A model generated the notes under the pieces. It was not told where the DNA came from and ran no database searches. It saw nothing but the letters and a program-made list of their open reading frames with translations. Position numbers and translations under genes: made by a program. Below, one piece after another: positions 9,796 through 59,083 of a stretch of DNA of 64,000 nucleotides. The stretch is from an uncultured Oligoflexia bacterium (GTDB taxonomy: Bacteria; Bdellovibrionota; UBA1018; UBA6935), in NCBI GenBank assembly GCA_964013565.1, contig CAXGWU010000001.1, positions 93,601-157,600 of the forward strand. Reading direction: 5' to 3'. Numbering within the stretch: position 1 is the first letter of the stretch; every line of letters starts with the position of its first letter.

Positions 9796-9797
9796 TT

Positions 9798-18463: not shown

Positions 18464-18464
18464 T

Positions 18465-33499: not shown

Positions 33500-33500
33500 G

Positions 33501-41669: not shown

Positions 41670-41680
41670 AGGAGACAGAT

Positions 41681-43282
41681 GTGAGTAGTGAACACCACGG
41701 AGATGTCAATTACCTGAATCATGAAAAAGGATTAAAATCCTGGTTGACGACTGTTGACCATAAACGGATTGGAATGATGTATCTTTTCACCGTTTTGTTC
41801 ATGTTTTTAATTGGGGGGATTTTTGCCCTTTTGGTTCGATTGGAGCTATTTTCAACAGGCCCAACGATTATTGATATGAATACTTATAATCAGTATTTCA
41901 CTTATCATGGGACGATTATGGTATTCATGGTGGTCATTCCATTGATCCCTGCCGCGATTGGGAACTTTGTTTTACCAATTATGTTGGGGGCAAAAGATGT
42001 TGCCTTTCCAAGATTGAATCTAGCTACTTATTATATCTATCTTGTAGGTGTTTTGGTTGCTTGTACAACGTTGTTTTTAAATGGAGTAGATACGGGCTGG
42101 ACTTTTTATACTCCTTATTCGATCCGAACGAGTACTTCTACAACATTGGTTATTTTAGGCGCCTTTATTCTTGGGTTTTCTGGAATTTTTACGGCACTTA
42201 ATTTTATTGTTAGTATTCACAAGTTAAGAGCACCCGGACTGACATGGGATCGACTCCCTCTTTTTGTTTGGGCATCTTATGCCACAAGTATTGTGCAGAT
42301 GTTGGCAACTCCGGTTCTTGCTATTACTCTTTTCTTATTAATTTTTGAGAGACTAACTGGGATTGGGATTTTTGATCCAAAGCTGGGTGGAGACCCTGTA
42401 ATGTTTCAACATTTCTTTTGGTTTTATTCTCATCCTGCGGTGTATATTATGGCACTTCCTGCCATGGGAATTGTTTCAGAGGTCATTCCCGTTCATTCTC
42501 AAAAGCCGATTTTTGGCTATAAAGCGATTGCGATGGCAACTTTTGGGATTGCTCTTGTTGCCTTCATTGTTTGGGGACATCATATGTTTGTTTCTGGACA
42601 GTCTGAGTTAGCAAACTTTGTATTCTCTTTGCTAACGATGTTTGTGGCGGTTCCTACAGGAGTGAAAGTTTTTAGTTGGATAGGGACAATGTATAAAGGT
42701 TCGATCCGATTTAATGCCCCCATGCTTTACGCAATGGCATTTTTGTTTATTTTTACGATCGGTGGTTTGACTGGAATCTTTTTAGCGACCGTTGCAACCA
42801 ATGTTCATTTAACGGATACGTACTTTGTTGTGGCTCACTTTCACTATGTAATGGTGGGTGGAACGTTGATGGGCTTTATGGCTGGATTCCATCATTGGTT
42901 TCCTAAAATGTTTGGAAGAATGTACAACGAGTCTGCCGCATTAGTTTCGGGTTTTTTAGTATTTGTTGGCTTTAATGTAACTTTCTTTCCTCAGTTTATT
43001 TTGGGGGCACAGGGAATGCCGAGAAGGTACTATGATTACCTTCCTGAGTTTGAAGCTCTTAACCGGGTTTCTACCGTTGGTTCAATGATGATTGGGTTAG
43101 GTTTTGTTTTTTCAGCAATTTACTTATTTAAAGCAATGAAATCAGGACCAAAAGCTTCGGCGAATCCGTGGAATGGAAAATCGTTGGAATGGGAAACGAC
43201 TTCCCCTCCACATCCTCATAACTTTCATGATCAGCCTGTTGTGACTCATGGACCTTACGACTTTATTGAGCAGGGAGAATAA
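41681..43282 (+). CDS. coxA: cytochrome c oxidase subunit I
   Basis: Canonical HCO subunit I (…WFFGHPEVY-like WFYSHPAVYI, HHMF, many TM helices). GTG start. Confidence 0.9.
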   Translation: MSSEHHGDVNYLNHEKGLKSWLTTVDHKRIGMMYLFTVLFMFLIGGIFALLVRLELFSTGPTIIDMNTYNQYFTYHGTIMVFMVVIPLIPAAIGNFVLPIMLGAKDVAFPRLNLATYYIYLVGVLVACTTLFLNGVDTGWTFYTPYSIRTSTSTTLVILGAFILGFSGIFTALNFIVSIHKLRAPGLTWDRLPLFVWASYATSIVQMLATPVLAITLFLLIFERLTGIGIFDPKLGGDPVMFQHFFWFYSHPAVYIMALPAMGIVSEVIPVHSQKPIFGYKAIAMATFGIALVAFIVWGHHMFVSGQSELANFVFSLLTMFVAVPTGVKVFSWIGTMYKGSIRFNAPMLYAMAFLFIFTIGGLTGIFLATVATNVHLTDTYFVVAHFHYVMVGGTLMGFMAGFHHWFPKMFGRMYNESAALVSGFLVFVGFNVTFFPQFILGAQGMPRRYYDYLPEFEALNRVSTVGSMMIGLGFVFSAIYLFKAMKSGPKASANPWNGKSLEWETTSPPHPHNFHDQPVVTHGPYDFIEQGE

Positions 43283-43285
43283 TCA

Positions 43286-43930
43286 ATGGCAATAGTTGCA
43301 AGTGAAAGAAAACATTCAGAACACTTTAATAGTGCGGAACATGAATTTGTTTCGAGTAAGCAGGGAATGTGGTTATTTCTGCTTCAAGAGGTCTTGTTTT
43401 TTGCGGGTCTTTTTGTTGCTTATGGAATTTTTAGGGCTCTAAACCCGGAAATGTTTCATGCAGCATCACAAATGCTCGATGTAAAAATGGGTGCTTTGAA
43501 TACTGTGGTTTTGATTTGTAGTAGTTTGACGATGGCTTTTGCCGTTCGTTCTGCTCAAACAAATCAGACTAAAAAGACAACGATGTATTTGATTGTCACT
43601 TTTCTACTCGCATCCGTTTTCTTGGTGGTGAAGTATTTTGAATATAGCCACAAATTTCATGTCGGACTTCTTCCTGGTCAATATTTTACGAACACAGAAT
43701 TGACGGATCCAAAGTCAGGACTCTTTTTCTCATTGTACTTTATGATGACGGGGGTTCATGGATTGCACATTATTTTAGGAATGCTTGTGATTCTTTGGTT
43801 GGTTAGAAGATCATCCAGAAATGAGTTTGGCTCGAATTATTATACACCTGTTGAACTATTTGGTTTGTATTGGCACTTTGTCGATTTAATTTGGATTTAT
43901 TTATTCCCATTATTGTATCTTATTGATTAA
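43286..43930 (+). CDS. coxC: cytochrome c oxidase subunit III
   Basis: Subunit III-like polytopic protein following coxA. Conserved His-rich C-terminal helices. Confidence 0.8.
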   Translation: MAIVASERKHSEHFNSAEHEFVSSKQGMWLFLLQEVLFFAGLFVAYGIFRALNPEMFHAASQMLDVKMGALNTVVLICSSLTMAFAVRSAQTNQTKKTTMYLIVTFLLASVFLVVKYFEYSHKFHVGLLPGQYFTNTELTDPKSGLFFSLYFMMTGVHGLHIILGMLVILWLVRRSSRNEFGSNYYTPVELFGLYWHFVDLIWIYLFPLLYLID

Positions 43931-43943
43931 GGCGAGGAAAAGC

Positions 43944-44741
43944 ATGAGTAATCAACACGAACATCATGAACATTTTATTTTACCAGTGAAACTAGGAATT
44001 TTTGTTTGGTTCGCTTTGATCATTGGTACGATTATTACGGTATTAGTCGCTCAGGTTCACTTAGGTGAGTGGAATTTTGCTGTGGCAATGGCCATTGCAA
44101 CTGTAAAGGCGGCGCTTGTCGTTACTTACTTTATGGGAATGAAGTATGAAACAAACGATAATAGAGTAATTGCAGTCAGTGCGATTATTTTTAGTGTCAT
44201 CTTTTTCGTTCTTACAGCAACAGATCTGTTTTTTAGGAAAGATGGGGTCTATGTTCAAAAGGGTGATCTAGAAGCATGGGCCGCTTTGGGAGCAGACTCT
44301 CAAACTCTTAAATTTAAAAAACCTTGGGTATCTAGCGATGAGCTCGTTGCTCATGGGAAAAAGTTATTTGATATGCAATGTGCCACTTGCCACGGTTCTG
44401 CTGGGAAAGGTGATGGTCCTGCTTCAGGTGCACTTAATCCGAAACCAAGGAATTTCACACAGGCATCTGGATGGAAAAATGGACGAAAACCCGCACAGAT
44501 TTACGGAACTCTTCAAAAAGGGTTAGGAACAATGCCTTCGTTCGGATCTCTTCCTAAGGATGACCTTTGGGCATTGGCTCATTATGTCTCGCATTTTGGA
44601 CCAGATGTCTTAAAAGATAGCAATGCAGACTTGAAAAAAGTTGGAATTGACCCATCAAAAGAAGATGGTGGTCTTGGGGGAGCAGGGTCTAAGGTTCTTC
44701 CAATTGACTTCGCAATTGAATTGATGTCAGAAGATTCATAA
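43944..44741 (+). CDS. caa3-type oxidase subunit IV-like membrane domain fused to a C-terminal cytochrome c domain
   Basis: N-terminal two-helix COX4_pro-like segment (MSNQHEHHEHFILPVKLGIFVWFALIIG…), then a soluble domain with CATCHG. ATG at 43944 with GAGGAAAA upstream. The ORF-track TTG at 43923 overlaps the coxC stop. Confidence 0.55.
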   Translation: MSNQHEHHEHFILPVKLGIFVWFALIIGTIITVLVAQVHLGEWNFAVAMAIATVKAALVVTYFMGMKYETNDNRVIAVSAIIFSVIFFVLTATDLFFRKDGVYVQKGDLEAWAALGADSQTLKFKKPWVSSDELVAHGKKLFDMQCATCHGSAGKGDGPASGALNPKPRNFTQASGWKNGRKPAQIYGTLQKGLGTMPSFGSLPKDDLWALAHYVSHFGPDVLKDSNADLKKVGIDPSKEDGGLGGAGSKVLPIDFAIELMSEDS

Positions 44742-44868: not shown

Positions 44869-45750
44869 TTAGAATAATTTTTTTATTTTTAACCATTCTC
44901 TAATCGCTTGATCTTTAGATCCTCGATTAAACATTTCTACTTGATGATCTTCCCCTCCATAACGAAAAGTGAGAACGTCTAAAGATGGATCGTTCTTTAA
45001 CGCTTTTGCTACTCCATCGCAGTGATGTCTATGGTCATCTATAAAGAGGATAGATTTAAGCTTTTTTTTCGCATGATTTAAAAAAAGCTTAAGCATTGCT
45101 CCTTTATGTTGTCCTTCTGAAAAAAAAATACCTTCTCGATAAAGAACTTTTCGTGGAGAGGTAAGTAGATGAAAATTTTTAATTTCTTTTAAAGAAAATC
45201 CTTCTTTTTGAAGAGTTGAATATTGATACGGTAAAAAAGTATTTTTTGGAAAAGATGAAGGTATTGCGTTTTGACTTAAGTCCACTTGAATTGAAGTCAG
45301 ATGCCTCATGGTGTACGGGTAAAAACGAGGCCCCCGACTGGTTAAAATGAGAATAGGGTATCCTTGATTTTGAAGGGAGCGGATGAGAGTCGATGTGTTT
45401 TTCTGAGTAGGTCGAGCTGCGGCGAGCGCATGCAGTTTCCCTTGTACTTCTAATAGCCCCATAAAAGACTGAGCGACAGCAAAAGGAAAGTGAGGCTGAT
45501 TTAGATGTTCATATTGCCAACGAAACCATTGATCACTTCCAATCGATTGTTGATAAGCAAGTAGAGTATTGTCGAGATCAAAAACGACAAGAGTTTGAAA
45601 AATACTGTGAGTGTTTGACTGTATTTTGGAATATTTGACGACTTCTTCGAGATGGTTGATTTCATAGTGATGAGATGAAGCATATGAGAGTTGAAAAATA
45701 ATCTGAAAAAATAAGATCAAGACAAATTCTCTTTCATTTGTGGCTCCCAT
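44869..45750 (-). CDS. HAD-superfamily hydrolase-like protein
   Basis: DxDxT motif I (VVFDLDNTLL) and a late DD motif (ILFIDDHRHH). Hydrophobic N-terminus. Confidence 0.5.
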   Translation of the reverse strand: MGATNEREFVLILFFQIIFQLSYASSHHYEINHLEEVVKYSKIQSNTHSIFQTLVVFDLDNTLLAYQQSIGSDQWFRWQYEHLNQPHFPFAVAQSFMGLLEVQGKLHALAAARPTQKNTSTLIRSLQNQGYPILILTSRGPRFYPYTMRHLTSIQVDLSQNAIPSSFPKNTFLPYQYSTLQKEGFSLKEIKNFHLLTSPRKVLYREGIFFSEGQHKGAMLKLFLNHAKKKLKSILFIDDHRHHCDGVAKALKNDPSLDVLTFRYGGEDHQVEMFNRGSKDQAIREWLKIKKLF

Positions 45751-46895
45751 TTTTTTTGTACTACTTTAGCTAATACGAATGCCAAAAGGAGAACCCCAGA
45801 AGCTGCTATAAAGGGAGTTCCTGCACCTAGATGATCAAAAAGGTATCCACTCATGGGAGGTCCTACAATTCTGGCTAGGCTTGACGATGAATGAAAAATT
45901 CCCATAGTGACCCCTCTTCTGGAAGGGGCTGCGCCTTGAGAGCAAAGACTTGAGAGGGTTGGGTGTAAAATTCCATGTCCGAATGCCATAAGAATCATTG
46001 CATAAATAAGGTGAGTATAATCAAATGTTTGACCAAACCAACTCATTCCGGCTGACATTAAAACAGTACCGATTAAGACTAATCGAATATCTCCAAATAA
46101 TTTTGAGAGTTTTCCAATCAGTCCTCCTTGAATAAAAGCCATGATCAGTCCCATGGTACCGAGCAGGTATCCTGCTTGTAGAGCTGTTTTAGAAAAACGA
46201 GTCTTTAAGTAAAGAGCAAATGACACTTCCATTTGAACAACCGCTAAGGTGAGAAGAAAAAATAAGAAAGTTGTACTTCCAGTGAGAGGATGGCTTAAAA
46301 CTTCTTTTAAGGTTGTTCGGTTGAATTTACGATCCCGATTTGCTTTTCTTTGCTCGTGAGTGAGGGGAGGCTCTTTTAAAATAAATATTGCTAAGATCAA
46401 GTTTAAAGCAGAGAGTCCAGCCGCAAAGAATAAAGGAGTGGAGTATCCATGTTGGGACAGAATCCCTCCAATGGCGGGTCCAAAGATAAATCCCAATCCA
46501 AACCCGGCACCAATCAGTCCCATTCCTTTTGAGCGGTTCTCTTGAGTAGTTACATCTGCTACGTAAGCATAGGCTGTGGAAATATTTGCCGTCATGATTC
46601 CTGCACAGAATCGAGCAATAAATAGCCAAACGAGAGAAGATGCAAATCCTAGACCGGTAAGACTAAGGACCGTTCCAAAAATACTGATTAAGAGAACTTT
46701 TCTTCTTCCGATTCTGTCGGAGAGTTGCCCCCAAAGGGGAGCAAAAAGAAATTGCATAAGTGAGTAAATAGTCATTAACCAACCGAGGTCCCAGGCGGTA
46801 GCTCCAAAGCTCTCCGCATAATAAGGGAGAATTGGGATGACGATTCCAAAACCGAGAAGGTCAATAAATAGGACCAAAAAAAGAGTAAGTAACAT
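45717..46895 (-). CDS. MFS transporter
   Basis: 12-TM pattern with the MFS signature GRRKVLLISIFG between TM2 and TM3. Confidence 0.8.
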   Translation of the reverse strand: MLLTLFLVLFIDLLGFGIVIPILPYYAESFGATAWDLGWLMTIYSLMQFLFAPLWGQLSDRIGRRKVLLISIFGTVLSLTGLGFASSLVWLFIARFCAGIMTANISTAYAYVADVTTQENRSKGMGLIGAGFGLGFIFGPAIGGILSQHGYSTPLFFAAGLSALNLILAIFILKEPPLTHEQRKANRDRKFNRTTLKEVLSHPLTGSTTFLFFLLTLAVVQMEVSFALYLKTRFSKTALQAGYLLGTMGLIMAFIQGGLIGKLSKLFGDIRLVLIGTVLMSAGMSWFGQTFDYTHLIYAMILMAFGHGILHPTLSSLCSQGAAPSRRGVTMGIFHSSSSLARIVGPPMSGYLFDHLGAGTPFIAASGVLLLAFVLAKVVQKKWEPQMKENLS

Positions 46896-46906: not shown

Positions 46907-47614
46907 TTATCTTGATTCAGGGGGGCCATGCAAGAACGCAATGAGTGATGCGAAAAAGAATCCAAAAAAACCGCCAAAAACTACATCAGTCGGATAATGT
47001 CGCCCCGCCCAGACTCGAAGAACTCCTGTTGAAATGGTGAGAAAGAGGCTGAGAAAGAAGATCATTTTTTGCGCTCTTGAGTTTAGATTCCGCCTTACAC
47101 CAAAATAAATGAGGGAAACACAGGAAGCCGCAGCAAAACTCGTATGTCCTGAGAAAAAGGAACTATAATCGTGAACGTTATTTGCTTGATGCCACGGTTT
47201 AAGAAATAAGTAAGGGCGAGGACGGTTGGTTACGATTTTTGTGATCTCTGTAAACATTCCTGTGATGAGAACAGATTGAGCAAAAATAGTGAAATCAAAT
47301 AAAAAGTCTTTTGAGGTACTCTTTTCAAAAGGAGGAAGTTTTTGGATTTTTCGGTAGAGGTGAATACTTAAAGGAATAAATACAGCACAAAGACCAGCAA
47401 GATCTTGAGTCCAAAATGATGCAATATCAGCGAGATCATGAATGGGATGAATTGCAAGTTGATCAATGAAATTAATTTCTGAAGCTGAGCATGCTCCTTC
47501 TTTTGCGCAGGGAGTGTTCATCCATTGATCTCTATTTTTGACTAGAAAAATCCAGAGCAAACCTGGAATCAGAATAAGCCATGCATCTACTTTAAAAAAT
47601 AAGCTTCGTTTCAT
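46907..47614 (-). CDS. PAP2-family phosphatase
   Basis: KIVTNRPRPY (KxxxxxxRP), SFFSGHTS (PSGH) and RVWAGRHYPTDVVFG (SRxxxxxHxxxD) motifs. Confidence 0.8.
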   Translation of the reverse strand: MKRSLFFKVDAWLILIPGLLWIFLVKNRDQWMNTPCAKEGACSASEINFIDQLAIHPIHDLADIASFWTQDLAGLCAVFIPLSIHLYRKIQKLPPFEKSTSKDFLFDFTIFAQSVLITGMFTEITKIVTNRPRPYLFLKPWHQANNVHDYSSFFSGHTSFAAASCVSLIYFGVRRNLNSRAQKMIFFLSLFLTISTGVLRVWAGRHYPTDVVFGGFFGFFFASLIAFLHGPPESR

Positions 47615-47659: not shown

Positions 47660-48553
47660 TTATTCAAGCGCCCAATCAAAAATTCCATGGATTCTTAATC
47701 TTCTGACTTCTTCTTTGAGTCGATCTACTTCAATTTGAAGGTCTTCGATTCTGTTGATGAACGTTGAAGCCGTAAAAAACAGGGTTTCAACGTCAATGCT
47801 TATTTGAAGAAGTGCTTTTGAGTGATTTTGCAATAACACTCGATAGTAAATTCGGGCATTTTTGAGTTCATCAATACGGTAGTTATCAATACTTAAGGCG
47901 AGATCAAAAAGTTCTTTTTCAGTAGATTCAATAATGTCGAGTTGAGTGCTTTCTAAGAGTTCAAATGGGTTGAGATAGTTTCTTCTTAAATGTTCAATGA
48001 TGAATGCGTCAATTCCCCCAATGATTCCACCTGTAAGATAGACTTGAGTTCTACCAATGAGGGTTTTTGGAAGCTCATGAGAGACAACCTTCAGTCGTCG
48101 AGAGAATTGCTCTAGGTTTGTCTTTCCTGCAGAAACCCAAGCAGATTTTTTAAATAAACCACGAGTCCATTTAAATCCATAAAACAAAGTCCAGTATACA
48201 GCAATATCTTTAAAGATAATCATGACGGGATGACGTTTCTCTTGTTCATCCAGTTCTCTTTGAATCATTGATTGTATTTGAGAGAGAAGTAAAACGGTAT
48301 TTGCTCGGTCAATCGGATTCCAGCGATAATGACTTATTAAATTAAGAAGCGTTTCATTAAAATCTTCTTTTGAAAGAGATTTAATTCTTCTGGAGAGAGC
48401 ACGGGCATGTCTGAGTTGTAGATCTTCACTCGAGGGAGAGTCGTTTTCATTTGATGAATAAGTATTAAAATAATCTTGAATCATTTGATCTGACCAAGGA
48501 GCTGCATAAGAAAATCCATGAAATAAAAAAATTCCTAATAAAAATTGAATCAT
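47660..48553 (-). CDS. hypothetical secreted protein
   Basis: Signal peptide MIQFLLGIFLFHGFSYA (start at the internal Met). No known motif. First of three co-directional AT-rich genes. Confidence 0.45.
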   Translation of the reverse strand: MIQFLLGIFLFHGFSYAAPWSDQMIQDYFNTYSSNENDSPSSEDLQLRHARALSRRIKSLSKEDFNETLLNLISHYRWNPIDRANTVLLLSQIQSMIQRELDEQEKRHPVMIIFKDIAVYWTLFYGFKWTRGLFKKSAWVSAGKTNLEQFSRRLKVVSHELPKTLIGRTQVYLTGGIIGGIDAFIIEHLRRNYLNPFELLESTQLDIIESTEKELFDLALSIDNYRIDELKNARIYYRVLLQNHSKALLQISIDVETLFFTASTFINRIEDLQIEVDRLKEEVRRLRIHGIFDWALE

Positions 48554-50019
48554 GGGGTCTCTTCTTTCCATTCATAAGTCATTTGAAGAAATTGATTAAG
48601 CATTTGATTGATTGAATGCATGTCTTGAGTCAAACGAGTAATGAGAGTTTGTTTACCTGGGAATGTATATTGGTGAAGATTTGCTATAGCATGAAGAAAA
48701 ACCGAGTTGGGATGGGAGAAGCTAGTTTGAGGTAATAAGCTATTTAAATAGCGTAGATTCATTTTTTCTACCCACTTCGAATAAAGATCTTCTTTTAGAG
48801 AAAGAAGCATGGATGATTGAATTTGTTCTTCTTGATGGGGTTTTATTTTTTGAAGGTAAAAATCTCTATAGAACCATGCAAGTTCCTTTAGGTGAGGTTC
48901 AAATGCGGCTAAAGAATACCAGTCTTTGTGAATGATGCGTTCTCGAGTTAAAAATCCAGAGTAGCCAAAATGTGAGAGCATTTTATGTTTATTAAATACA
49001 TGAAGGAGTTCTAGGAAAAGCTCATTTGATTCCTTTTTTGAAAGTTCAGTGGGGTTTTCAAATGCCTCACTGGTGAGCTCTATGGTTTCTTCATAAACAG
49101 GTTGAAATAAAAAATAAGCAAGTTTTTGAGCGTCTTTGGCGATTCTGTGTCCATAAATGGCTCTTTGATGTGGGGTAGTTGCTAATTTAAATTCATCAAT
49201 TGAACTAAGGTAATCTTTAGTGTGATTTGATTTTTTATGTTTTTGATAACGGGCATATGCTTGTTCTTCTACGAGTACGCCTGCAACAATGCTTCCAGCA
49301 AAAACAAGTGGATGAGCTTTTGCTGGTGTTGCAGCTCGATTGACTCCTCCGAACAGAAGAGCACCTCGTTGAATCATTTTTCCTATGAGTGCTTCTGCTA
49401 AGAAGCTACCGCTAACAAAACTTCCTAGTTTAAAAAATAAGTCTGTCGTTACAGGGCCATTAAGAAGAGGAAAGGGATCAGAGGGAAGAGCTTCTAATTG
49501 AATGAGATGAGAAGGGGGGGCTTTCTCTGTTGCAGATCGAGAAAGAAATTCTCCAGTAGATTTTCCAGCAACAAAGCCAACAACTGGGAGTGTGCCTCTT
49601 AAAAATTTAAAATAAGAACTTATTTTTTCTGGGTGTTTTTTTAGAATGAAGTAAAAAGCAAGGGCAAGTCCTATTCCACTTACAGTTCCAATTCCCGCTC
49701 CCGCATCGATTGTTAAATTTCGAATTCTTTGAGAGCCTTTGGCACAATGACTTTCCCAGTGTGTTTGTAGATCGATAGCAATGGATGGAAGTTTATTGGG
49801 ATCTATTTTTTCACTTAAAATGAGTAACGCATTTGAGTAGTTTTCATTGTCTAGTGAGAATACTTTTTGAATAAGTAAATCAGAAGAAATTAAGTTTTCT
49901 GTGGTTGTTTGAGCTGAGTTTACTCTAGTTATGATTTCTTCAAGTGAGTTATTAAGTGCTTTAGTTTTACAAATTCCGAAAGCGAGTTGTGGAATAAAAA
50001 AAAGAAAAAATAATTTCAT
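48550..50019 (-). CDS. hypothetical secreted protein
   Basis: Signal peptide MKLFFLFFIPQLAFG (internal Met). No known motif. Abuts the upstream gene. Confidence 0.45.
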   Translation of the reverse strand: MKLFFLFFIPQLAFGICKTKALNNSLEEIITRVNSAQTTTENLISSDLLIQKVFSLDNENYSNALLILSEKIDPNKLPSIAIDLQTHWESHCAKGSQRIRNLTIDAGAGIGTVSGIGLALAFYFILKKHPEKISSYFKFLRGTLPVVGFVAGKSTGEFLSRSATEKAPPSHLIQLEALPSDPFPLLNGPVTTDLFFKLGSFVSGSFLAEALIGKMIQRGALLFGGVNRAATPAKAHPLVFAGSIVAGVLVEEQAYARYQKHKKSNHTKDYLSSIDEFKLATTPHQRAIYGHRIAKDAQKLAYFLFQPVYEETIELTSEAFENPTELSKKESNELFLELLHVFNKHKMLSHFGYSGFLTRERIIHKDWYSLAAFEPHLKELAWFYRDFYLQKIKPHQEEQIQSSMLLSLKEDLYSKWVEKMNLRYLNSLLPQTSFSHPNSVFLHAIANLHQYTFPGKQTLITRLTQDMHSINQMLNQFLQMTYEWKEETP

Positions 50020-52649
50020 AAACTGGCCTCCAGAGTTTTTAGAGTGCCCGGTTGTTTTAAGATCCATCTTTCATTTAAAAGAGTTTTTTCACTGAGTCTA
50101 AAATAGGCCTTTTCAATAGATTTAAGTTCTTCTTGAGTTAGGTTCTGAGGTTTTTTTCTGAGGTGATCAAGTTGTTTTTTTAATTGTTCTAAATTCCAGC
50201 TTTTAGAATTTCCTGGTTTTATTTTTAAAGTTTTAAAAGCTTCAATATCTTTAATGATTTCTTTGAATCTTAACGCCGATCCAGATTCAAATTCAATAAA
50301 ATGAGCAATGGGTTTGTATCGAGATACTTTGATCCACTGTAAAAGTCTGCTAGCCCAAGATAAGCCAAAAAGTAATCCAATATCTACGATTAAAAATTTT
50401 ATTTTTTGGCTTTGGTATATTTTCTTTGCTGAATCGAGATTAATAAAGCTTATAAAGGCATCTTTTTTAACTTGAGAACGATATATTTTTTTGATCTTAT
50501 TTTTCTTTATTCGTGTGTCATAAAAAGTGTTTTTTGCTTGATAAGCGATTTCTCCAATGAGCATCCAAGCAATTACTTTTTTTAAACGTTCTGTAAATGG
50601 CATTTTTAAAATCAGTTTAGAGAAAGGACCTAGTTTTTTTGAAAAGAAACTCACACTTTCAAGGATGATGAGTCCTGTTGCTAAGTTGATCATTTCATCG
50701 GAAAGAGTTTCTCCTGCAATTTGATCTAAAAGGGTTTGTTCTTGAAGTCTTTTTTTCTCGTTTTGAATGATCTTGTTATAGTTTGGGTAATTTTCAATAA
50801 ATGATTCTGTGATTTGGGATTCTAAAAAAATGATTTTTAAATCATCTATTTTTTTTGCAGATTGAACTCGATTGATGAGTTGAAATAGGTTTTTTTTAGC
50901 GATTTCAATCGATGCTTCAATCGGAGCCCAAGGGGTATAGGCTGCGAGGTTTTCAGATAAATATTTTCCTTCAGAAGTGTTTGTGTTTAGAAGTGGATGT
51001 CTGAGTCGAGTATTTTCTCTTTTTTCTTCATAGTCTTCTGTAGAGAGGTTTTTAAAAAAATCGAGAGAAGGGCTTTGTTCTGGATGAAACGGTCTAAGAA
51101 ATCCCATCCATTTTCCGAAATGGTAAAGACTATAAAGGTCTCTTCTTATTTCTGATTTAATTTCATGAATCATTCGATGTGTTTTTAAAGACTCTTTTTG
51201 GGACTTTATTTTAGCAGGAAGTGAAATTTTTCCGTTCTCTAAAAAATGAATAAATCTGACTTTGTCAATTTTCCCTTCGTAAAAACACCATGGAGGAAGA
51301 AATAGTTCTAGAGATGACTGGTAGTTGTTGAAGGACTCAGAATAAGAGTTTGATTGAACGATTTTCTGAAAAATTTGTTTTGCAAATAGTGATGGGTTGT
51401 CTTTTAGAAAAAAAGGAAGATAGTGTTTTCCCAGAAGAAGGGGTTGGATAAAGGTTTGTCTTGCAAATGATTTTTTTATTTGGATTAATTCAGATTTAAA
51501 TTCTTCTCTTTTTATTTGTGTGTTGTCACTTTTTAAAGTTTTATTTGATTCATTAATCCAATTTTCAATTTGATCAGAAGGAATTTTTTTTAAAAAATTG
51601 TTACTGATTTCATGTATTTTTTCAGTAAGAGATTCTTCGATAGATTGATCTAAATCAAACGCGATGTGGGTAAATGATAGTCTTAAGGTTTCTTCTAATG
51701 CGAGGGCAATCCACCTTTTTAGTAATGGGATCCACGTTTCTTGCGGGCTTTTAGAAAATAAAAACGATGTATTGAAGATTTGAGTTTTTGTAGCTTTTAT
51801 TGCCACATCTTGGATGTATTTTATTTTTTCTTTTTTAAAGAGATTATTTACTCTTTTGTCTTGTGCAATGCGAATAAGGTCTGCTCTGTCTTCTTCATCT
51901 AAAAAAAGAGGTAAATTAAGTGTGTCAATGCTCTTTGACAGTGCATTACGTGTTTCGTTTTCTTTATTTGATTCGTTTATTTGTGTAAAATAAGCTAATC
52001 CATTTTGTTGTGGTGAAACGTTTATAGATTTTAAAGTGTCTTGAATGTCTCTTTTGTTTTTTTCAGAAACAATTTCATTCATAACAAATAGTTGCTCTAT
52101 TGCCTGTTCTATAACTTTTTGTTTAAAAATTTTGAAGAAGTTTTTTTTATTTGGATTTTGTTTGAGTTTATAATTTTTTGCTTCTTGAGAAAAGTCACTA
52201 AGGAGTTTAAGTCGATATTTGTTGTCTTCTTTTTGAATTTTTATTGGAAAGGGCCGGTCTTGGTTTGCTTGAAATTTTAACCAGGCAAACAAGCGTTCTT
52301 CAGAAAGAGGGATGCTCCAATCAATACTGGAAGGGGAGGAGTGGAGCTGAGAGGTGATCAAGAAGATTTCAATGATTTCTAGATATTTTTGTAACGGATC
52401 AGATTCATCGCTCAGTGGATCTTTAATGATTTGAGTTTTCCATTGGAGCAATTCCGATTCAATTTCTACAAGGGAATGAGAGGGAGTCATTGAAGTCCAG
52501 CGATCAGGGTGAATTACTTGCTTCATTTGAAGCACAATTTGTCGATGAAGCTCATTTGGAACTAATGCTGCCATTGAATTCAAAGGAAAAACAAAGAGTT
52601 TTGCCAGAATCACAATTGTGAAGCGTGTACCCCAAGGAAGTCTTTTCAT
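50016..52649 (-). CDS. large hypothetical secreted/membrane-anchored protein
   Basis: Start taken at MKRLPWGTRFTIVILAKLFVFPLNSMAA (ATG 52647-52649). ~878 aa, Lys/Glu-rich. No known motif. Confidence 0.4.
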   Translation of the reverse strand: MKRLPWGTRFTIVILAKLFVFPLNSMAALVPNELHRQIVLQMKQVIHPDRWTSMTPSHSLVEIESELLQWKTQIIKDPLSDESDPLQKYLEIIEIFLITSQLHSSPSSIDWSIPLSEERLFAWLKFQANQDRPFPIKIQKEDNKYRLKLLSDFSQEAKNYKLKQNPNKKNFFKIFKQKVIEQAIEQLFVMNEIVSEKNKRDIQDTLKSINVSPQQNGLAYFTQINESNKENETRNALSKSIDTLNLPLFLDEEDRADLIRIAQDKRVNNLFKKEKIKYIQDVAIKATKTQIFNTSFLFSKSPQETWIPLLKRWIALALEETLRLSFTHIAFDLDQSIEESLTEKIHEISNNFLKKIPSDQIENWINESNKTLKSDNTQIKREEFKSELIQIKKSFARQTFIQPLLLGKHYLPFFLKDNPSLFAKQIFQKIVQSNSYSESFNNYQSSLELFLPPWCFYEGKIDKVRFIHFLENGKISLPAKIKSQKESLKTHRMIHEIKSEIRRDLYSLYHFGKWMGFLRPFHPEQSPSLDFFKNLSTEDYEEKRENTRLRHPLLNTNTSEGKYLSENLAAYTPWAPIEASIEIAKKNLFQLINRVQSAKKIDDLKIIFLESQITESFIENYPNYNKIIQNEKKRLQEQTLLDQIAGETLSDEMINLATGLIILESVSFFSKKLGPFSKLILKMPFTERLKKVIAWMLIGEIAYQAKNTFYDTRIKKNKIKKIYRSQVKKDAFISFINLDSAKKIYQSQKIKFLIVDIGLLFGLSWASRLLQWIKVSRYKPIAHFIEFESGSALRFKEIIKDIEAFKTLKIKPGNSKSWNLEQLKKQLDHLRKKPQNLTQEELKSIEKAYFRLSEKTLLNERWILKQPGTLKTLEASL

Positions 52650-52861
52650 GGAGTTTTTATAACGCAATAAGTCATTGTTTTCAATGAAGAAGGTTCGTAG
52701 GGCCTTTGATTCAAATTTCAGGTTCGACCCATGCATTTATTTGAAATTACTATTAAAATTGTAACGATTTAGTCTGGAACTTCGAATAAGTTCTATTACA
52801 GGCGAAAAATAGTACTTCTAAAAAGGAAAGTTTGTTTCGATTGACTCGATTATCAATCTTT

Positions 52862-54757
52862 TTAGACTTTCCCTTCTTTAAGCTCTTCCACAATCTGAGG
52901 GTCCAAGAGGGTACTGGTGTCACCGAGGTTTTCAGTTTCTCCAGAAGCAATTTTTCTTAAAATTCTTCTCATAATTTTTCCAGACCGTGTTTTTGGAAGT
53001 CCAGAGACGATTTGAATTTTGTCTGGTTTTGCTATGGGACCGATTTGTTGAGTGACCGTTTTTAAAATACTCTTTTTTATTTCTTCTTGATCTAAAAGAG
53101 TTTGATCACAAATTAAAAAAGCATAAATTCCTTGTCCTTTGATGTCGTGAGGATATCCTACCACCGCACTTTCAATGACGTGAGGGTTAAGGTCAATCGC
53201 ATCTTCAACTTCAGCGGTTCCAATTCGGTGACCAGAAACATTAATGACGTCATCCACTCTCCCTGTAATTCGATAGAGTCCATTTTCATCTTTTTTGCAT
53301 CCATCCCCTGTAAAGTAATAACCTTCGTAGGTGGAAAAATAAGTTTGTTTAAAGCGGTCGTGATCTCTAAAAACGGTTCGAGCAATTCCTGGCCAGGATC
53401 GTTTGATACATAAATTTCCTTCAATATTATTTCCAGTTAGGTCTGTGCCCTTGTCATTTTTAAGAACGATTTCGACTCCGGGAAGTGGAAGGGTTGCGTA
53501 ACTGGGTTTCATTGGCGTGACTCCCGCAAGATTAGAAATCATGATTCCACCGGTTTCTGTTTGCCACCACGTATCGACAACAGGGCACTTTTTTCTTCCT
53601 ACAATATCGTGGTACCAAATCCACGCTTCTTCGTTGATAGGTTCGCCTACAGTACCTAATACTTTTAAAGAACTGAGTTCGGCTCTTTCAACCCAGTGGT
53701 CTCCCTGTCCCATAAGGGCTCGAATTGCTGTTGGAGCAGTGTAGAAATGTGAGACTTTATGCTTTTCAATCACATTCCAAAACCTCCCTGGATGCGGATA
53801 GTTTGGAACTCCTTCAAACATGACTGTTGTGATTCCATTAATTAAAGGAGCATATGTAAGATAGGTATGACCAGTAACCCATCCGATATCTGCGCTACAC
53901 CAGTAAATGCTTTTGTCATTGATTTGAAAAACATTTCTAAAAGTATACGCACCCCAAACCATATATCCTGCGGTAGTGTGAACGACGCCCTTGGGTTTTC
54001 CTGTGGAACCAGAAGTATAAAGAATAAAAAGAGGGTCTTCGCTTTGCATGGGTTCAGCAGGACATTCGGAAGCAGCGGAGCTTTGAAGATCATGCCACCA
54101 AAAGTCCCTTCCATTTTGAAGTGAAATATCAGAATAGGTTCTTCGATGGATGATCACTTTAGAAATAGATGGGCAAGTTTTTAACGCCTCGTCAGCAATT
54201 TCCTTAAGAGGAATAGTCTTTTCACCTCGAAACCCACCATCATTAGTGATCAGTAGACTACATTCGCAGTCATTGATTCGATCACTGAGGGCTTTTGCTG
54301 AAAAACCACCAAAAACAACAGTATGGACTGCTCCAATACGAGCACATGCAAGGAGGCTGATTAATAGTTCAGGGACCATCGACATATAGAGACAGACGCG
54401 GTCTCCTTTTTTTACACCACTGCTTTTTAGCATATTTGCGGTCTTACAAACCTCAGTATAAAGCTCTTGAAAGGTATATTTTTTTGTTTCAGAGTTTTCT
54501 TCATTTGGTTCAAAAATAAGAGCAGTGTGATTTCCGCGTTTTTCTAAATGACGATCGAGTGCATTTTCTGTGATATTTAGAATTCCACCTTCAAACCATT
54601 TTACATCCACTTTTTTGAAGTCTCCACTTTGAACGGAATCAAATTCCTTTTTCCATTGAAAACTTTTGGCAATTTCTCCCCAAAATTCTTCCGGTTCGGA
54701 AAGACTTTTTTTGTAAGCGTTTTGATATTCTTCGTAGGATTTGATTTGCCAGAACAT
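52862..54757 (-). CDS. acs: acetyl-coenzyme A synthetase (acetate--CoA ligase)
   Basis: Colinear with Acs: AMP-binding motifs YTSGSTGKPKG and GDGCKKDENGLYRITGRVDD, and the C-terminal SGKIMRRILRKIA lysine-acetylation motif. Confidence 0.9.
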   Translation of the reverse strand: MFWQIKSYEEYQNAYKKSLSEPEEFWGEIAKSFQWKKEFDSVQSGDFKKVDVKWFEGGILNITENALDRHLEKRGNHTALIFEPNEENSETKKYTFQELYTEVCKTANMLKSSGVKKGDRVCLYMSMVPELLISLLACARIGAVHTVVFGGFSAKALSDRINDCECSLLITNDGGFRGEKTIPLKEIADEALKTCPSISKVIIHRRTYSDISLQNGRDFWWHDLQSSAASECPAEPMQSEDPLFILYTSGSTGKPKGVVHTTAGYMVWGAYTFRNVFQINDKSIYWCSADIGWVTGHTYLTYAPLINGITTVMFEGVPNYPHPGRFWNVIEKHKVSHFYTAPTAIRALMGQGDHWVERAELSSLKVLGTVGEPINEEAWIWYHDIVGRKKCPVVDTWWQTETGGIMISNLAGVTPMKPSYATLPLPGVEIVLKNDKGTDLTGNNIEGNLCIKRSWPGIARTVFRDHDRFKQTYFSTYEGYYFTGDGCKKDENGLYRITGRVDDVINVSGHRIGTAEVEDAIDLNPHVIESAVVGYPHDIKGQGIYAFLICDQTLLDQEEIKKSILKTVTQQIGPIAKPDKIQIVSGLPKTRSGKIMRRILRKIASGETENLGDTSTLLDPQIVEELKEGKV

Positions 54758-54959: not shown

Positions 54960-57900
54960 ATGGGCTTTTTGGTGTCCATGAATCTAAAAGTAAAAAAAAG
55001 GTTTAAGATCATGAAAATACAACATTTCATTTTACCGCTCTCAGTGGTCTTTTTTGGGTTGATGGGAATAAGTCAGGCTTCTGGTGGACCTGCAACCCAA
55101 GAGGAAAAAGAAGCTCTTGTTTTTTTCAAGAACAATGGCCTGGAGTTAACTCTAAAAGAACTACGAGAAAATGAAAAAGATGCACAAAAAATAGCAGATA
55201 TGTGCACGAGCATTAAGGAAGACTATCAGCAGATTCCAGAAAGAGTAAAACAACGCTGTATTCATAGTGGGTCTGCAGGAACTTATATGCGGAATAAGTA
55301 CATTGTTAAATACACTCAAAGATTATTTAAAAAAGCAAACTGTGAAGGTGCAGATACCAAAGAATCGGTGATCGACTGTTATCAAAACATCCAAAATAAA
55401 TTGATTGATAAAAAAAATAAGTCAAAAAAGTCAGGGATTACCGGATATGGAAGACATTTCTCTAAGGTAAGACCGACTTTTAAAGAAGTTGCAGTGGATA
55501 AGTACTGCCATTCGATTGCACGAAAAAGAAGTGAAAACGGGGCTGCATTGCCTCCAACGTTTGTTACGGATTGTGTCGCTCTTGAGTATGGGCATTTAGC
55601 GGTCCTCGTAGAGGGACTTGATGTTAGAGATGATGAAAGTCTTTCTGGGACAAATATGATGCAAAAAAATGTTTCTCGTTTTGTGAGTCATTTACAAAAT
55701 CCAAAAGCATTTGAAGAAATCTTTAAAAAAGCCAGAGAGAAAGCAATTCGCCTTTCTAAAACTCCAGGGCAAAGTTTTCAAAAAGCTAATCTTGAATATC
55801 GAAGATTGGCTCGAATAGGTGCAGTCTTAAAGGAACTTGATGCCGTATGTAAAGGACTCAAAGGACAAAAGGCAAGAGCATGCGTACGTGAACAGCTGGG
55901 AGATATGAAGTATGAGCTCAGTCGTGGAGTGATGGAAAATGGTCTTGGTAATGAATTAGATTACGCAACCGCATGGGATTGGGCGAGAAGAGATTGTGTC
56001 GCTGCTTTGATTCAGCTCGATGGAAGTGAAGTTTCAGATACTAAAATAAGACAAAAAGAACTGAGAGATCAGTGTACTTCTCCTAAAGTGATTCAAGACA
56101 GGCTTTGGGAAGTTCCGAGCTTAGCTTTTGTTCCTCTAAAAAAAGGAGGAGGAGCAGGAGGTTCTGATGAGGACGGTGAGGGCTCAGGAGGAAGTGGCTC
56201 AGATGGGGAAAAGGGCGGAAGTTTTGGTGGCGTTGCTGGCGGTGGAAATGCAGACGCAGCTTCTTCCTCTGGTAATGTCGTTTTAGCTGATGATAAAGAT
56301 CATTGGAGTATTACCAATGATATTGCTTCTTTAAGAAATTTAATCAGTGAAAAAGTTTTTGACTCTAGTTCAGTTTGCCAAAGAGTCGCTTCAAAAGATG
56401 CAAACTTAAAGTATAAGAAAGAAGCAGCGTCCAGTCTTGGTGTTCCTGATGATGGCGTTTGTGTCGAATGTAAAAAAAGTGGAACGGGATTTTTAGGTAC
56501 CACTGTAGGTGACTTAGCTGAACACCTTGCTCATGAAAAAGCCGATGTGACTGTGGGTGAATATGACCGAATGCTTCGAAGGAAGTTTTTAAAAGTACTT
56601 TCCGATTCCTATAAAGAAGATTTTTTAGAAGATCTTCCTATTGAGAAAGAGGGAGCTTTTCCTGCTTCGAGGAAGAAAACATTTGGATCCTTGGGGCTTG
56701 ATGGATCGATGTGTGAAATTAATCCAAGTCTTTTAGATGCGATGGGTTTTGAGAAAGACGAAAAAGGGAACATTCAACCTGTGGTTCCTTTCCGAAAAAA
56801 CCAACTTGAAAAAGAGGATAGAATCGATCCTAAAAGAATTCGTTCATGCGCAAAAAGAATTTCTGATGCAAGAAATGCAGTGAGGACACGACTGTTTGGA
56901 AAAGACCCAGACGCTCTTCTTGACATGGTTTCTCAAGAAGATAAAGAGTTTGTGATTCAAAAAACAAAGCTTTATGAAGAAGTTGCGCAAGAGTGTCCAG
57001 AAGTCAAATGGGGTGCTCCTGGTGCTTCTCAGTTTCTTGGAAACCCTGGAAGCGAAGAAAAAGCGATGAAGTGGTATGACATCGAATTTAAAGGTTGGGG
57101 ATTTACTAAAGATAAAATTTCAAGAGATGGTCTTCCTTTTGTTACTCAATTTGGAGATTCATCTCTGAGTGATGCAGAGATTTCTTCTCGATTAACAAAA
57201 ATTAGAAAAGAAAGAAAAGATGCATATTTGAAACTGATCCATTCCACATGTGATCCTGATTTAAAACAAGCTGGGAAAATCACTTCTTATTTAAATAATA
57301 TGGCAGCTTTAGTTTCCGTGGATGATCCTGGTCATTTAAAAGATGAAAGAAGAGTGGGTGCGGACGGAAAAATTACCGCTTATGGAAAAATGAGAGATGC
57401 TCACGAGTGTGTCAATTTGACCAATAATGCAGATTTTAAACATGACGCATTTCAGACGTTTACGATGGTGGCGTGTACACTTGGAGAAGTGGCAGTGGGA
57501 GCATCAGGTGTGGGATTACCGATCACTGTTGGAATAGGTGCTGCGTGTTTTGGTGGAGAAGCATTAGAGCTTCTTGATCATATGAACCACAAATCTCAGA
57601 AAGCATCCTTTTTGTCGGCATGTGAACTCCTAAATGCGGGAAGAAAAGGAGTATGTGACTATGATTCTGCTCAAAAGGCAGCCCAAGAAGTTGAAGCGAT
57701 TTACGATGAATTAGTTCTAAGTGCTGCAATGAATGGAGTTGGGGTTTTGGGTGGAGACGTCCTAGGAAAAGGGTATGCGAAGGCAAAGCAGCTGAAGGGG
57801 GCTGCTCGTCGAATTAAGGATTGGAATACCTTATCTAAAGTGACTGGAGAGCTTGCTACCGCAAAGGGGCTTCAAAAGAAAATGAGCCGCTTGAAAAGGA

Positions 57901-58487
57901 TTGAAGATCAAATCGTGTCTCATCGAGGGCGGATCAGTCGACGAAAAATGAAAGCTCTTGAAAATGAAGCAGCTCGATTGAATAAGGAAATTTCAAGAGA
58001 TCTTGATGATGTGACCAATGCGATGATTGCTCAGATTAAGGTTAACGATCCAGCTCTTTATAAAGAAATGATTGCGGATGCGGCAGTTAAAAATAAAACG
58101 AATAAAATTGAACTTTTTGAAGATCTTTCTAGAAGAATGGATCAGAATGAAGCTTTTGCTAATAAAATGAGAGCTCAAGCAAAAGAGGCTCGAGAACGCT
58201 TGGCGGATACTCATCCAAATGTGCGGATGTACGACCCGGATCGGCAGCCTGCTGAGATTTTAGCGATTCAATCTAGAGTTGATGAAATCAAAAGTGGTTT
58301 AAAAGCAGATGAGAATCGACATTATTTTGAATTAGTCGAAGCTCATAAAAAGAAGCATGGAAGGAAACCAAGATTGCTTCAGCGAAGAAAGTATAAAAAA
58401 CAGGCTCGAGAACGCGCTGAGCTTGATATGAAACGAAAAGACGTTGACTTGGACAAACGTATCGTGAGTTGTCACGGAAAACGCTAA
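54960..58487 (+). CDS. very large secreted protein, Cys-rich N-terminal region, Gly/Ser/Asp-rich linker, Lys/Arg/Glu-rich C-terminus
   Basis: Signal peptide (MKIQHFILPLSVVFFGLMGISQA; an alternative start is at 55011). Low-complexity linker KKGGGAGGSDEDGEGSGGSGSDGEKGGSFGGVAGGGNADAASSSGN (~56141-56280). C-terminal charged heptad-like region. Confidence 0.55.
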   Translation: MGFLVSMNLKVKKRFKIMKIQHFILPLSVVFFGLMGISQASGGPATQEEKEALVFFKNNGLELTLKELRENEKDAQKIADMCTSIKEDYQQIPERVKQRCIHSGSAGTYMRNKYIVKYTQRLFKKANCEGADTKESVIDCYQNIQNKLIDKKNKSKKSGITGYGRHFSKVRPTFKEVAVDKYCHSIARKRSENGAALPPTFVTDCVALEYGHLAVLVEGLDVRDDESLSGTNMMQKNVSRFVSHLQNPKAFEEIFKKAREKAIRLSKTPGQSFQKANLEYRRLARIGAVLKELDAVCKGLKGQKARACVREQLGDMKYELSRGVMENGLGNELDYATAWDWARRDCVAALIQLDGSEVSDTKIRQKELRDQCTSPKVIQDRLWEVPSLAFVPLKKGGGAGGSDEDGEGSGGSGSDGEKGGSFGGVAGGGNADAASSSGNVVLADDKDHWSITNDIASLRNLISEKVFDSSSVCQRVASKDANLKYKKEAASSLGVPDDGVCVECKKSGTGFLGTTVGDLAEHLAHEKADVTVGEYDRMLRRKFLKVLSDSYKEDFLEDLPIEKEGAFPASRKKTFGSLGLDGSMCEINPSLLDAMGFEKDEKGNIQPVVPFRKNQLEKEDRIDPKRIRSCAKRISDARNAVRTRLFGKDPDALLDMVSQEDKEFVIQKTKLYEEVAQECPEVKWGAPGASQFLGNPGSEEKAMKWYDIEFKGWGFTKDKISRDGLPFVTQFGDSSLSDAEISSRLTKIRKERKDAYLKLIHSTCDPDLKQAGKITSYLNNMAALVSVDDPGHLKDERRVGADGKITAYGKMRDAHECVNLTNNADFKHDAFQTFTMVACTLGEVAVGASGVGLPITVGIGAACFGGEALELLDHMNHKSQKASFLSACELLNAGRKGVCDYDSAQKAAQEVEAIYDELVLSAAMNGVGVLGGDVLGKGYAKAKQLKGAARRIKDWNTLSKVTGELATAKGLQKKMSRLKRIEDQIVSHRGRISRRKMKALENEAARLNKEISRDLDDVTNAMIAQIKVNDPALYKEMIADAAVKNKTNKIELFEDLSRRMDQNEAFANKMRAQAKEARERLADTHPNVRMYDPDRQPAEILAIQSRVDEIKSGLKADENRHYFELVEAHKKKHGRKPRLLQRRKYKKQARERAELDMKRKDVDLDKRIVSCHGKR

Positions 58488-59083
58488 AAAAGATCAATGA
58501 GAACAATCTGTTCGTTTTGTTTGAGATACTTTAAAACAATCTGAGTGAGCATTTCAGCATAATCTTTAGGAGAGATTTCCTGGGGGTCTGGGGGATTGTT
58601 TAAATTAAATTCTGACTCTATAGAATGAAAGTAGTGATCAAAAGATTGAGGGTGAATCCCCAGGTCGTTGTCTTTAATGCCAAGAAGTTTTCCTGTGAAA
58701 TAGTATGTAATTTCCATACTGAAAATATCATATTGAAACTCTGTAAGATGAAGCTTTGGGATCTCTCCATGAAGAAATTTTTTAATTTCATCTAAAGTCA
58801 GTTCTATTTTTTCTTCCTCTGCAAGGAGGAGGTCATTGTTTTGATGTTCAAAAATGACAGCAGAAAAATCAAAAGTCGACCCTGAGACTTTTGTAAATGC
58901 TTCTTGAATGAATCTAAGGTCCGCCTTTTTTCTTTCTTGATCAATCATTGATTGAGGTTTTTGATTGGCTGGAACTAATCTGCTGTTTGGATCTTCAATT
59001 TCAAAAAGCTCGTTACAGAAAAAATCATCAGCAAAAGAGGTTCCTGATAGCAGAAAAAAGACCGTAAGTATCGAAAACTTCAT
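58484..59083 (-). CDS. hypothetical secreted protein
   Basis: Signal peptide MKFSILTVFFLLSGTSFA (internal Met start). No motif. Confidence 0.45.
   Translation of the reverse strand: MKFSILTVFFLLSGTSFADDFFCNELFEIEDPNSRLVPANQKPQSMIDQERKKADLRFIQEAFTKVSGSTFDFSAVIFEHQNNDLLLAEEEKIELTLDEIKKFLHGEIPKLHLTEFQYDIFSMEITYYFTGKLLGIKDNDLGIHPQSFDHYFHSIESEFNLNNPPDPQEISPKDYAEMLTQIVLKYLKQNEQIVLIDLF

Follow-up and report, generated by a model that had tools for sequence, protein, structure and literature searches.

A conserved operon coding for three exported helical protein families in an uncultured Oligoflexia bacterium, with a possible action at membranes

We analyzed a three-gene locus in a 64,000-nucleotide stretch of DNA from an uncultured Oligoflexia bacterium (contig CAXGWU010000001.1, positions 93,601 to 157,600; the whole stretch is referred to as the window, and positions are counted from its first nucleotide). 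The three genes, labeled A, B and C from the upstream end, form an operon that is conserved as a module in diverse lineages, and their products are predicted to be exported. The genes and their junctions are as follows.

50016-52649, minus strand: gene A, 877 amino acids from the Met at 52649; the open reading frame (ORF) remains open to 52736 (50016-52736, 906 amino acids).
48550-50019, minus strand: gene B, 489 amino acids; the ORF (48550-50067) has 505.
47660-48553, minus strand: gene C, 297 amino acids; the ORF (47660-48571) has 303.
50016-50031, minus strand: A/B junction, a GGAGG Shine-Dalgarno sequence (50027-50031) and an ATGA stop/start overlap (50016-50019).
48550-48553, minus strand: B/C junction, ATGA, the stop of B overlapping the start of C.

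The initial annotation had described three linked minus-strand genes abutting at 48550-48553 and 50016-50019, and both the ORFs and the junction sequence agree with it. For all three genes we adopted the shorter starts that this annotation implied, which are the same as those of public gene calls. The shorter starts were preferred because the ATG of B lies 7 nucleotides past GGAGG and overlaps the stop of A as ATGA, because the ATG of C overlaps the stop of B likewise, and because the signal peptide then sits at the extreme N-terminus, as in homologs. The probability of an open frame of at least 297 codons arising by chance is ~5e-10 (our own calculation, with ~7% stop codons expected from base composition). 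Given this value and the presence of homologs with the same gene order elsewhere, A, B and C are real genes. The layout of the A/B junction (GGAGG and ATGA) indicates translational coupling, as far as can be judged from sequence. Junction overlaps of 1, 4 or 11 nucleotides are conserved at 10 other loci and occur almost everywhere, and this conserved coupling supports the operon proposed initially. The signal-peptide-like N-terminus that had been noted on each protein was likewise confirmed, as cleavage sites with small residues at -3 and -1 occur in all three proteins and in essentially all homologs. All three products are therefore predicted to be exported, by signal peptides conserved family-wide. 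The proteins have already been deposited, all as hypothetical, from a Tara Oceans metagenome-assembled genome (MAG; TARA_SAMEA2622822 scaffold_27), where C, B and A are called with 297, 489 and 877 amino acids; the entries are MBN20561.1, MBN20562.1 and the CL678_04675 product.

When A, B and C were used in word-indexed searches of 5.8 billion protein clusters, each recovered only itself. The strict ORFan status that these searches suggested was overturned by an exhaustive HMMER search with B, which revealed 26 remote relatives among 1.84 billion cluster representatives (E-values 5e-17 to 9e-4, 25-35% identity). With 27 clusters in this set, the B family is very rare. We obtained the genomic context of 13 further members (14 contexts together with the window; loci and proteins are denoted by L and P numbers) and tested the flanks with alignment profiles of A and C. 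A C-like gene (294-437 amino acids) directly follows B in all 14 contexts. An A-like gene (907-1023 amino acids) is either upstream of B or fused to it in 12 of the 13 contexts with a visible upstream flank. The sole context that has B-like and C-like genes but no adjacent A-like gene is L014 (6175-9130), with a divergent HD-domain gene upstream. Distribution among relatives had been suggested initially as a check, and the outcome is that the A-B-C gene order is kept in most contexts. Since the GC content of contigs carrying the module ranges from 35% to 62%, the module spans diverse lineages. The C-like proteins of L014 and L013 are longer (433-437 amino acids).

In one lineage A and B are naturally fused. 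In the fusion protein, P0031 (1310 amino acids), residues 382-899 correspond to A 346-865 (E 1e-15) and residues 978-1133 to B 84-251 (E 5e-10). A short linker takes the place of the signal peptide of B, and the gene after the fusion is C-like. As the B part has no signal peptide of its own, the fusion implies that A and B interact and share one side of the membrane. Together, the co-occurrence of the three genes and the A-B fusion point to one heteromeric complex.

At two loci, gene A is adjoined by an exported protein of ~520-580 amino acids without a Pfam match (L009 2151-3890 and L010 3342-4907; 45% identity between the loci). Its gene is co-directional with A in L009 and divergent from it in L010, and has no counterpart in the window. 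Genes similar in size are present upstream of A on the P0009 contig and in L012.

The characteristic regions of the three proteins map to the following positions.

50535-50693, minus strand: hydrophobic hairpin of A, Gly/Ala-rich and conserved (residues ~653-705; columns ~860-930 of alignment A4, with an invariant Pro).
50196-50249, minus strand: C-terminal motif of A, D-x-x-A-F-x-x-L-G/K-[IL]-x-P-G-x-W (DIEAFKTLKIKPGNSKSW; alignment A4).
49252-49710, minus strand: hydrophobic 'head' of B (residues ~104-256), delineated by hydropathy, insertion-energy scan and conservation.
48146-48229, minus strand: aromatic/Gly motif of C, WxLxYxFGFGRGLW, here YWTLFYGFKWTRGLFKK (alignment A3).

B is the best-conserved component. 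Its signal peptide is followed by an N-terminal helical region that ends in LQxHWE; then come two Gly/Ala-rich helical hairpins of marginal hydrophobicity and a C-terminal helical bundle of ~230 residues. The loop between the hairpins, PxAPAHxMxLG, is the most conserved one. The full alignment of B was too divergent for pattern search, and we used a tighter subset. In the B alignment (A1), nearly all members have signal peptides, and residues W88, G111, P130 and P169 are invariant. Strongly conserved motifs comprise LQxHWE, the Gly-rich hydrophobic helix, P..YF...R.L.P..G, PxAPAHxMxLG and ATPAKxHPxVLxGSxxVGxxVE. The head includes helices 104-126 (AGIGTVSGIGLALAFYFIL), ~130-160, 194-216 and 232-256 (PAKAHPLVFAGSIVAGVLVEE). 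Single-sequence AlphaFold2 modeling of B was unusable (predicted local distance difference test, pLDDT, of 38), and we relied on a model based on a 26-sequence alignment (mean pLDDT 77.7, predicted TM-score 0.73). This model is entirely alpha-helical. Its long helices (33-52 residues) span residues 77-128, 130-162, 191-229, 237-279 and 283-321, followed by the C-terminal bundle. The hydrophobic stretches are modeled at helix ends, paired into two hairpins whose turns carry conserved basic residues and Pro; model confidence is lower in the head than in the flanking bundle. We also considered B as a lipoprotein (...AFGIC) and rejected this reading, since the sequence departs from a canonical lipobox and its Cys is not conserved at the position that a lipobox would require. 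A disulfide signature was sought as well, and the Cys positions showed no consistent pairing.

Protein A starts with a cleavable-looking signal peptide (MKRLPWGTRFTIVILAKLFVFPLNSMA, followed by ALVP). The rest of the chain is made up of a ~620-residue N-terminal domain poor in Pro and Gly, the marginally hydrophobic conserved hairpin and a conserved C-terminal domain. Internal repeats were looked for in A and none were found; its Pro+Gly content is low. The A family alignment (A4) includes 7 members of 907-1023 amino acids, and the corresponding profile matches further members in L015 (E 7e-115), L016 (E 7e-39) and L013 (E 3e-11). The family consensus of the hairpin is LGxYLxxGFGALMLxQ...K..PF..AI....PLI..FM. 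The C-terminal motif is followed by a conserved ...E-x-A-Y/H-x-x-L...W, and the residues invariant in A4 are D801, A804, F805, G813, A848, L852 and W862. A J-domain-like reading of the D..AF..LG motif was rejected: the HPD motif and a Pfam DnaJ match are both absent, and the fusion implies an extracytoplasmic domain. By eye, the hairpin of A might be taken for a relative of the first hairpin of B, but hhalign did not support this.

Protein C comprises a signal peptide, a conserved N-domain (FND..xHLLADYR), the central aromatic/Gly motif and a coiled-coil-like C-terminal region of ~90 residues. Its family alignment (A3) has 8 members, and the profile matches 4 more. Against the PDB this profile produced only coiled-coil noise, at residues ~209-301.

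We next asked how hydrophobic the internal segments are, using the biological hydrophobicity scale of Hessa in a crude form (values applied additively, with a threshold of 5 kcal/mol). Proteins of the window served as controls: at or below the threshold, the scale detected 12 segments in the MFS transporter, 18 in COX1 and 6 in PAP2, many of them at or below 2 kcal/mol. A buried helix in the soluble Acs scored 2.3 kcal/mol. C has no internal segment within the threshold in any of its 8 members, and members of the A family have 0-1 segment each, at 3.5-4.5 kcal/mol. For B there are 0-3 segments per member; the best one is the first hydrophobic helix, at 0.9-4.1 kcal/mol in 4 of 7 members. By this crude test the internal hairpins appear marginal. 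They resemble helices kept buried by a soluble fold, with insertion only under certain conditions, rather than constitutive stop-transfer anchors, although a bitopic or hairpin anchor would still be compatible with the values for B.

None of the three proteins could be linked to a known family. Single-sequence searches with A, B and C gave no significant match in Pfam-A, NCBIfam, PADLOC, PHROGs or PDB chain sequences. In Pfam scans of all 41 family members, no family was matched by more than one member and all matches were below cut-offs. The family profiles of A, B and C, compared with all PDB chain sequences, detected coiled-coil or designed-helix noise only. Nor are the three families related to each other according to hhalign (A with B, C with B and C with A, probabilities of at most 7%). 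Foldseek, also suggested initially as a check, was run with the B model and found nothing significant either in PDB (best E 0.58, TM-score about 0.1, no ClyA-family toxin among the matches) or among the viral structures of BFVD (best E 0.31). No tblastn match of B was found in 50,697 phage or 72,556 plasmid records. A scan of a genome collection, one that does not hold this MAG, with the flanking MFS gene yielded only three distant MFS genes from unrelated phyla. The initial statement that the proteins have no recognizable motif is thus borne out by the family, profile and PDB sequence searches. No housekeeping family, which would have spoken against the initial effector reading, could be assigned to any of them. 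In literature searches limited to tripartite toxins, Bdellovibrio exported proteins and Pseudobdellovibrionaceae, the titles and abstracts make no mention of the module. What appears to be undescribed comprises the three families and the obligatory association between them, the fusion of A with B, the link to PAP2 (see below) and the absence of a known family or fold match. By the tests applied here, the module lies outside the known kinds at the level of both family and system; its function is what we infer.

The neighborhood of the module in the window includes the following genes.

46907-47614, minus strand: PAP2-family lipid phosphate phosphatase gene, 45 nucleotides downstream of C (Pfam PAP2, E 3e-21).
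45717-46895, minus strand: DHA1/Tet(A)-like MFS transporter gene, 11 nucleotides downstream of PAP2 (Pfam MFS_1, E 2e-77; NCBIfam below cut-offs).
44869-45750, minus strand: DUF2608/HAD-IIIC-like phosphatase gene, overlapping the end of the MFS gene by 34 nucleotides; N-terminus like a signal sequence or membrane anchor.
52862-54757, minus strand: acs, on the other flank of the module.
38683-44741, mostly plus strand, with ctaB (UbiA family) on the minus strand: ctaB-SCO1-cox2/1/3/4, convergent with the module side; cox4-cytochrome c.
27888-34709, mostly plus strand: alternative-complex-III-like cluster, further upstream, with a 1042-residue Fer4/molybdopterin-type subunit.

The PAP2 gene, whose product has weak similarity to undecaprenyl-diphosphatase and PgpB, is probably co-transcribed with the module. 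It follows C in 5 of the 14 contexts (the window, L008, the P0009 contig, L011 and L016). Orthologs of the MFS gene occur after the module in L008 (54% identity) and L012 (62%), making it a syntenic neighbor in part of the clade. The cox cluster is near the module and convergent with it also in L008 and L011, that is, in 3 of the 14 contexts. With PAP2 and the DUF2608/HAD-IIIC-like gene, the downstream part of the cluster has two phosphatase-type genes. The alternative-complex-III-like cluster includes an NrfD-like subunit and its distant paralog (21% identity, no Pfam match of its own). The window (59800-60336) and L012 (4109-4603) share a DUF4442 (thioesterase-like) gene at a distance of a few kb from the module. 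This hints that L012 belongs to a related lineage, and is probably just synteny.

Compared with their neighbors, the module and PAP2 evolve far more rapidly. Between the window and L008/L011, identity is 72-74% for COX1 and ~51% for COX2, and for the MFS transporter it is 54% (L008). PAP2 is only 29% identical, and A, B and C are 20-31% identical over partial lengths. It is this fast divergence that made the word-indexed searches fail to find relatives. Such divergence is typical of proteins that are under conflict or have structural constraint only. The GC content at third codon positions (GC3) of A, B and C is 0.23-0.27, slightly below the 0.26-0.36 of their neighbors. Based on the conserved synteny (PAP2, MFS and the cytochrome oxidase cluster), the GC3 close to that of neighbors and the lack of plasmid or phage matches in the search above, the locus looks vertically inherited and not like an accessory island.

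Our tentative interpretation is that A, B and C may be subunits of one Sec-exported, all-alpha-helical heteromeric complex that acts at a membrane outside the cytoplasm, similarly to multi-component alpha-pore-forming toxins or translocons. Each subunit would be made with a cleavable signal peptide and would reach the periplasm as a bundle of helices, either soluble or bound peripherally. The marginal Gly/Ala-rich hairpins (two in B and one in A) and the aromatic/Gly motif of C would be buried at first. A, B and C would bind one another, and the complex would associate with the bilayer or conditionally insert the hairpins. The target bilayer might belong to the envelope of the cell itself or, in the case of a predatory host, to the prey, and the outcome might be a pore-, translocon- or membrane-remodeling assembly. 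The PAP2 lipid phosphatase, frequently linked to the module and equally fast-evolving, would probably act on the same membrane.

Such a complex would resemble the ClyA-family tripartite toxins (Hbl and Nhe of Bacillus cereus, AhlABC of Aeromonas, SmhABC of Serratia and MakABE of Vibrio) in having three all-alpha components encoded in one operon, the all-alpha architecture being modeled here for B. In these toxins the hydrophobicity of the head is graded between components, which are soluble on export and insert into the membrane conditionally (PMC7911051, PMC6602965). Every component of Hbl and Nhe has a Sec signal peptide, and the numbers of predicted transmembrane helices are 0, 2 and 1 (PMC7911051); AhlB inserts a helix-turn-helix hydrophobic head (PMC6602965). 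In the module, simple hydropathy scales and one model indicate two marginal hairpins in B, one in A and none in C, a pattern that may parallel that of the toxins. The ClyA fold, which combines an elongated tail bundle of helices with a head bearing a hydrophobic beta-tongue or helices, was not found in the fold searches with the B model. Mutual homology and homology to other family members, which are characteristic of ClyA-family components, were not detected either by hhalign, PDB profiles or Pfam scans of the 41 members. Because of these two results, membership in the ClyA family is unsupported; nevertheless, A, B and C, while apparently not members, may work like such toxins.

The bipartite alpha-pore-forming toxins YaxAB/XaxAB are not known to have Sec signal peptides. 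The module differs from them in that there is no sequence or fold match and the three subunits are of very different size. In outline, YaxAB/XaxAB are multi-component helical assemblies with a division of labor: membrane anchoring falls to one subunit, and the amphipathic helices of another cross the bilayer (PMC6602965). The module is also unlike the type III secretion translocon, which consists of a tip protein with a major and a minor translocator (IpaD/IpaB/IpaC, SipD/SipB/SipC), since the matches were not significant and Sec signal peptides are present here. No genes for the type III secretion apparatus or its chaperones were found in the scanned parts of the window and loci.

Several points weigh against a membrane-inserting complex of A, B and C. 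Unlike the components of ClyA-family tripartite toxins, the three proteins are not paralogs of each other, and their sizes are very unequal (877, 489 and 297 amino acids). The predicted structure is that of B by itself, and the insertion energies are crude additive values. The conserved basic residues at the hairpin turns also fit stable insertion in the cell's own inner membrane. For the lifestyle of the host there is only the label 'Bdellovibrionaceae/Pseudobdellovibrionaceae bacterium'. Finally, the apparently vertically inherited locus is situated among housekeeping envelope and respiratory genes, a setting that a resident envelope role fits at least as well.

In such a role, A, B and C would be permanent components of the cell's own envelope, with hairpins as inner-membrane anchors and large periplasmic helical domains. 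Their function would be a lineage-specific housekeeping or structural one, for example in envelope organization, in lipid-phosphate metabolism together with PAP2, or linked to the respiratory chain. The synteny with PAP2, MFS and ctaB-SCO1-cox conserved in the window, L008 and L011 is consistent with this possibility, and so are the vertical pattern (neighbors 50-74% identical between loci), the GC3 near that of neighbors and the lack of plasmid or phage copies. Moreover, the hairpin turns have conserved Lys, Arg and Pro residues, in agreement with the positive-inside rule, and the first hydrophobic helix of B is transmembrane-competent in some members (0.9-3.2 kcal/mol). On the other hand, stop-transfer would require more hydrophobicity than most internal segments have: no member of C (0 of 8) and not every member of A and B has a segment within the threshold, while true membrane proteins of the window score far better. 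Divergence this extreme relative to neighbors is unusual for a core structural machine. In addition, the linkage to cox, seen in only 3 of 14 contexts, may be inherited synteny, and the family is very rare (27 clusters among 1.84 billion representatives). On balance, we consider a resident envelope complex a serious but somewhat less likely alternative.

The idea of a membrane-inserting complex could be taken further. The module might represent a previously unrecognized Sec-exported, three-component alpha-helical machine (a pore or translocon), independent of the ClyA family and type III translocators, with which Bdellovibrio-like bacteria would breach or remodel the membrane of a target (prey) cell. 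A dedicated PAP2 would prepare the target lipid or protect the producer. In this specific form the proposal is rather unlikely to be correct.

The initial annotation had regarded the three genes as consistent with a secreted-effector arsenal, which would make their products separately acting exported virulence or predation proteins with nothing but the operon in common. The signal peptides of A, B and C, the lack of known domains, fast evolution and the presence of other exported uncharacterized proteins in the window are what might be expected of such effectors. However, co-occurrence and gene order conserved across divergent lineages, translational coupling and the A-B fusion all speak for one functional unit. 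Furthermore, none of the conserved residues looks catalytic, as they are Gly, Pro, Trp and hydrophobic ones, and the module has no kinship with the other exported clusters of the window. Independent effectors are therefore improbable, and the arsenal gives way to one conserved module with A and B fused in one lineage. A mobile-element or prophage remnant, such as tape-measure-like or other long helical structural proteins, can be dismissed as highly improbable: the proteins are long, helical and domain-less, and tape-measure proteins do appear among the non-significant viral Foldseek matches, but all of these have E above 0.3 and a TM-score of about 0.1, B has no phage or plasmid tblastn match and no PHROGs match, no integrase or phage genes are nearby, chromosomal synteny is conserved, and Sec signal peptides are atypical for virion proteins.

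If the complex of A, B and C is membrane-active, it would bring helical hairpins into a bilayer by a structural solution that is new. How uncultured Bdellovibrio-like bacteria attack other cells or interact with them is poorly understood, and the complex would be a candidate component of the machinery involved; membrane-active proteins of this kind are of interest as antibacterial leads. Read conservatively, the data describe three new co-evolving protein families with a lipid phosphatase partner, families that ordinary homology searches missed because they diverge so fast. Conserved 'hypothetical' operons are common and the function is inferred, so the module may prove to be a lineage-specific envelope component. 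In either case the gene set is testable, as it spans about 27 lineages and offers a natural fusion as well as conserved motifs suited to mutagenesis.

The window had also been described initially as rich in exported uncharacterized proteins. This holds for the genes at 8311-18556 and for a 1175-residue protein, all with signal-like N-termini, but part of the cluster carries SLOG/LOG-like domains and the gene at 18465-19850 codes for a PRPP synthetase. Kinship of the module with the 8311-19850 cluster or with the 1175-residue protein was considered and rejected, the sequences being unrelated. The region 8311-18556 (minus strand, GC ~31%) comprises six tandem, tightly packed genes for proteins of 494-652 amino acids, all with signal-peptide-like N-termini; the one at 15189-16880 has a lipobox-like ...LAGC. 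Two pairs are paralogous, 8311-9795 with 16931-18556 and 9798-11288 with 15189-16880. The members of the latter pair have C-terminal SLOG/LOG-like (Lysine_decarbox/LDcluster4) domains, which are unusual for exported proteins. The product of 18465-19850 (minus strand, 461 amino acids) has a full ribose-phosphate diphosphokinase domain at residues ~193-442 (TIGR01251, 180 bits) and an N-terminal extension of ~150-190 residues with a signal-like beginning. The ORF is probably over-extended, the actual gene being an ordinary prs that starts later and does not belong to the exported cluster as initially delimited.

Besides its signal-like N-terminus, the 1175-residue protein (54960-58487, plus strand) has a low-complexity region rich in Gly, Ser and Asp (residues ~395-445) and, at ~830-870, a hydrophobic segment rich in Gly and Ala. 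No family in Pfam, NCBIfam, PADLOC or PHROGs matches this protein, and it is unrelated to the A, B and C families and to P0031. The gene at 58484-59092 (minus strand, 202 amino acids), also without a family match, codes for a protein with a clear signal peptide (MQLMKFSILTVFFLLSGTSFA, followed by DD), and its 3' end overlaps that of the convergent gene for the 1175-residue protein by 4 nucleotides.

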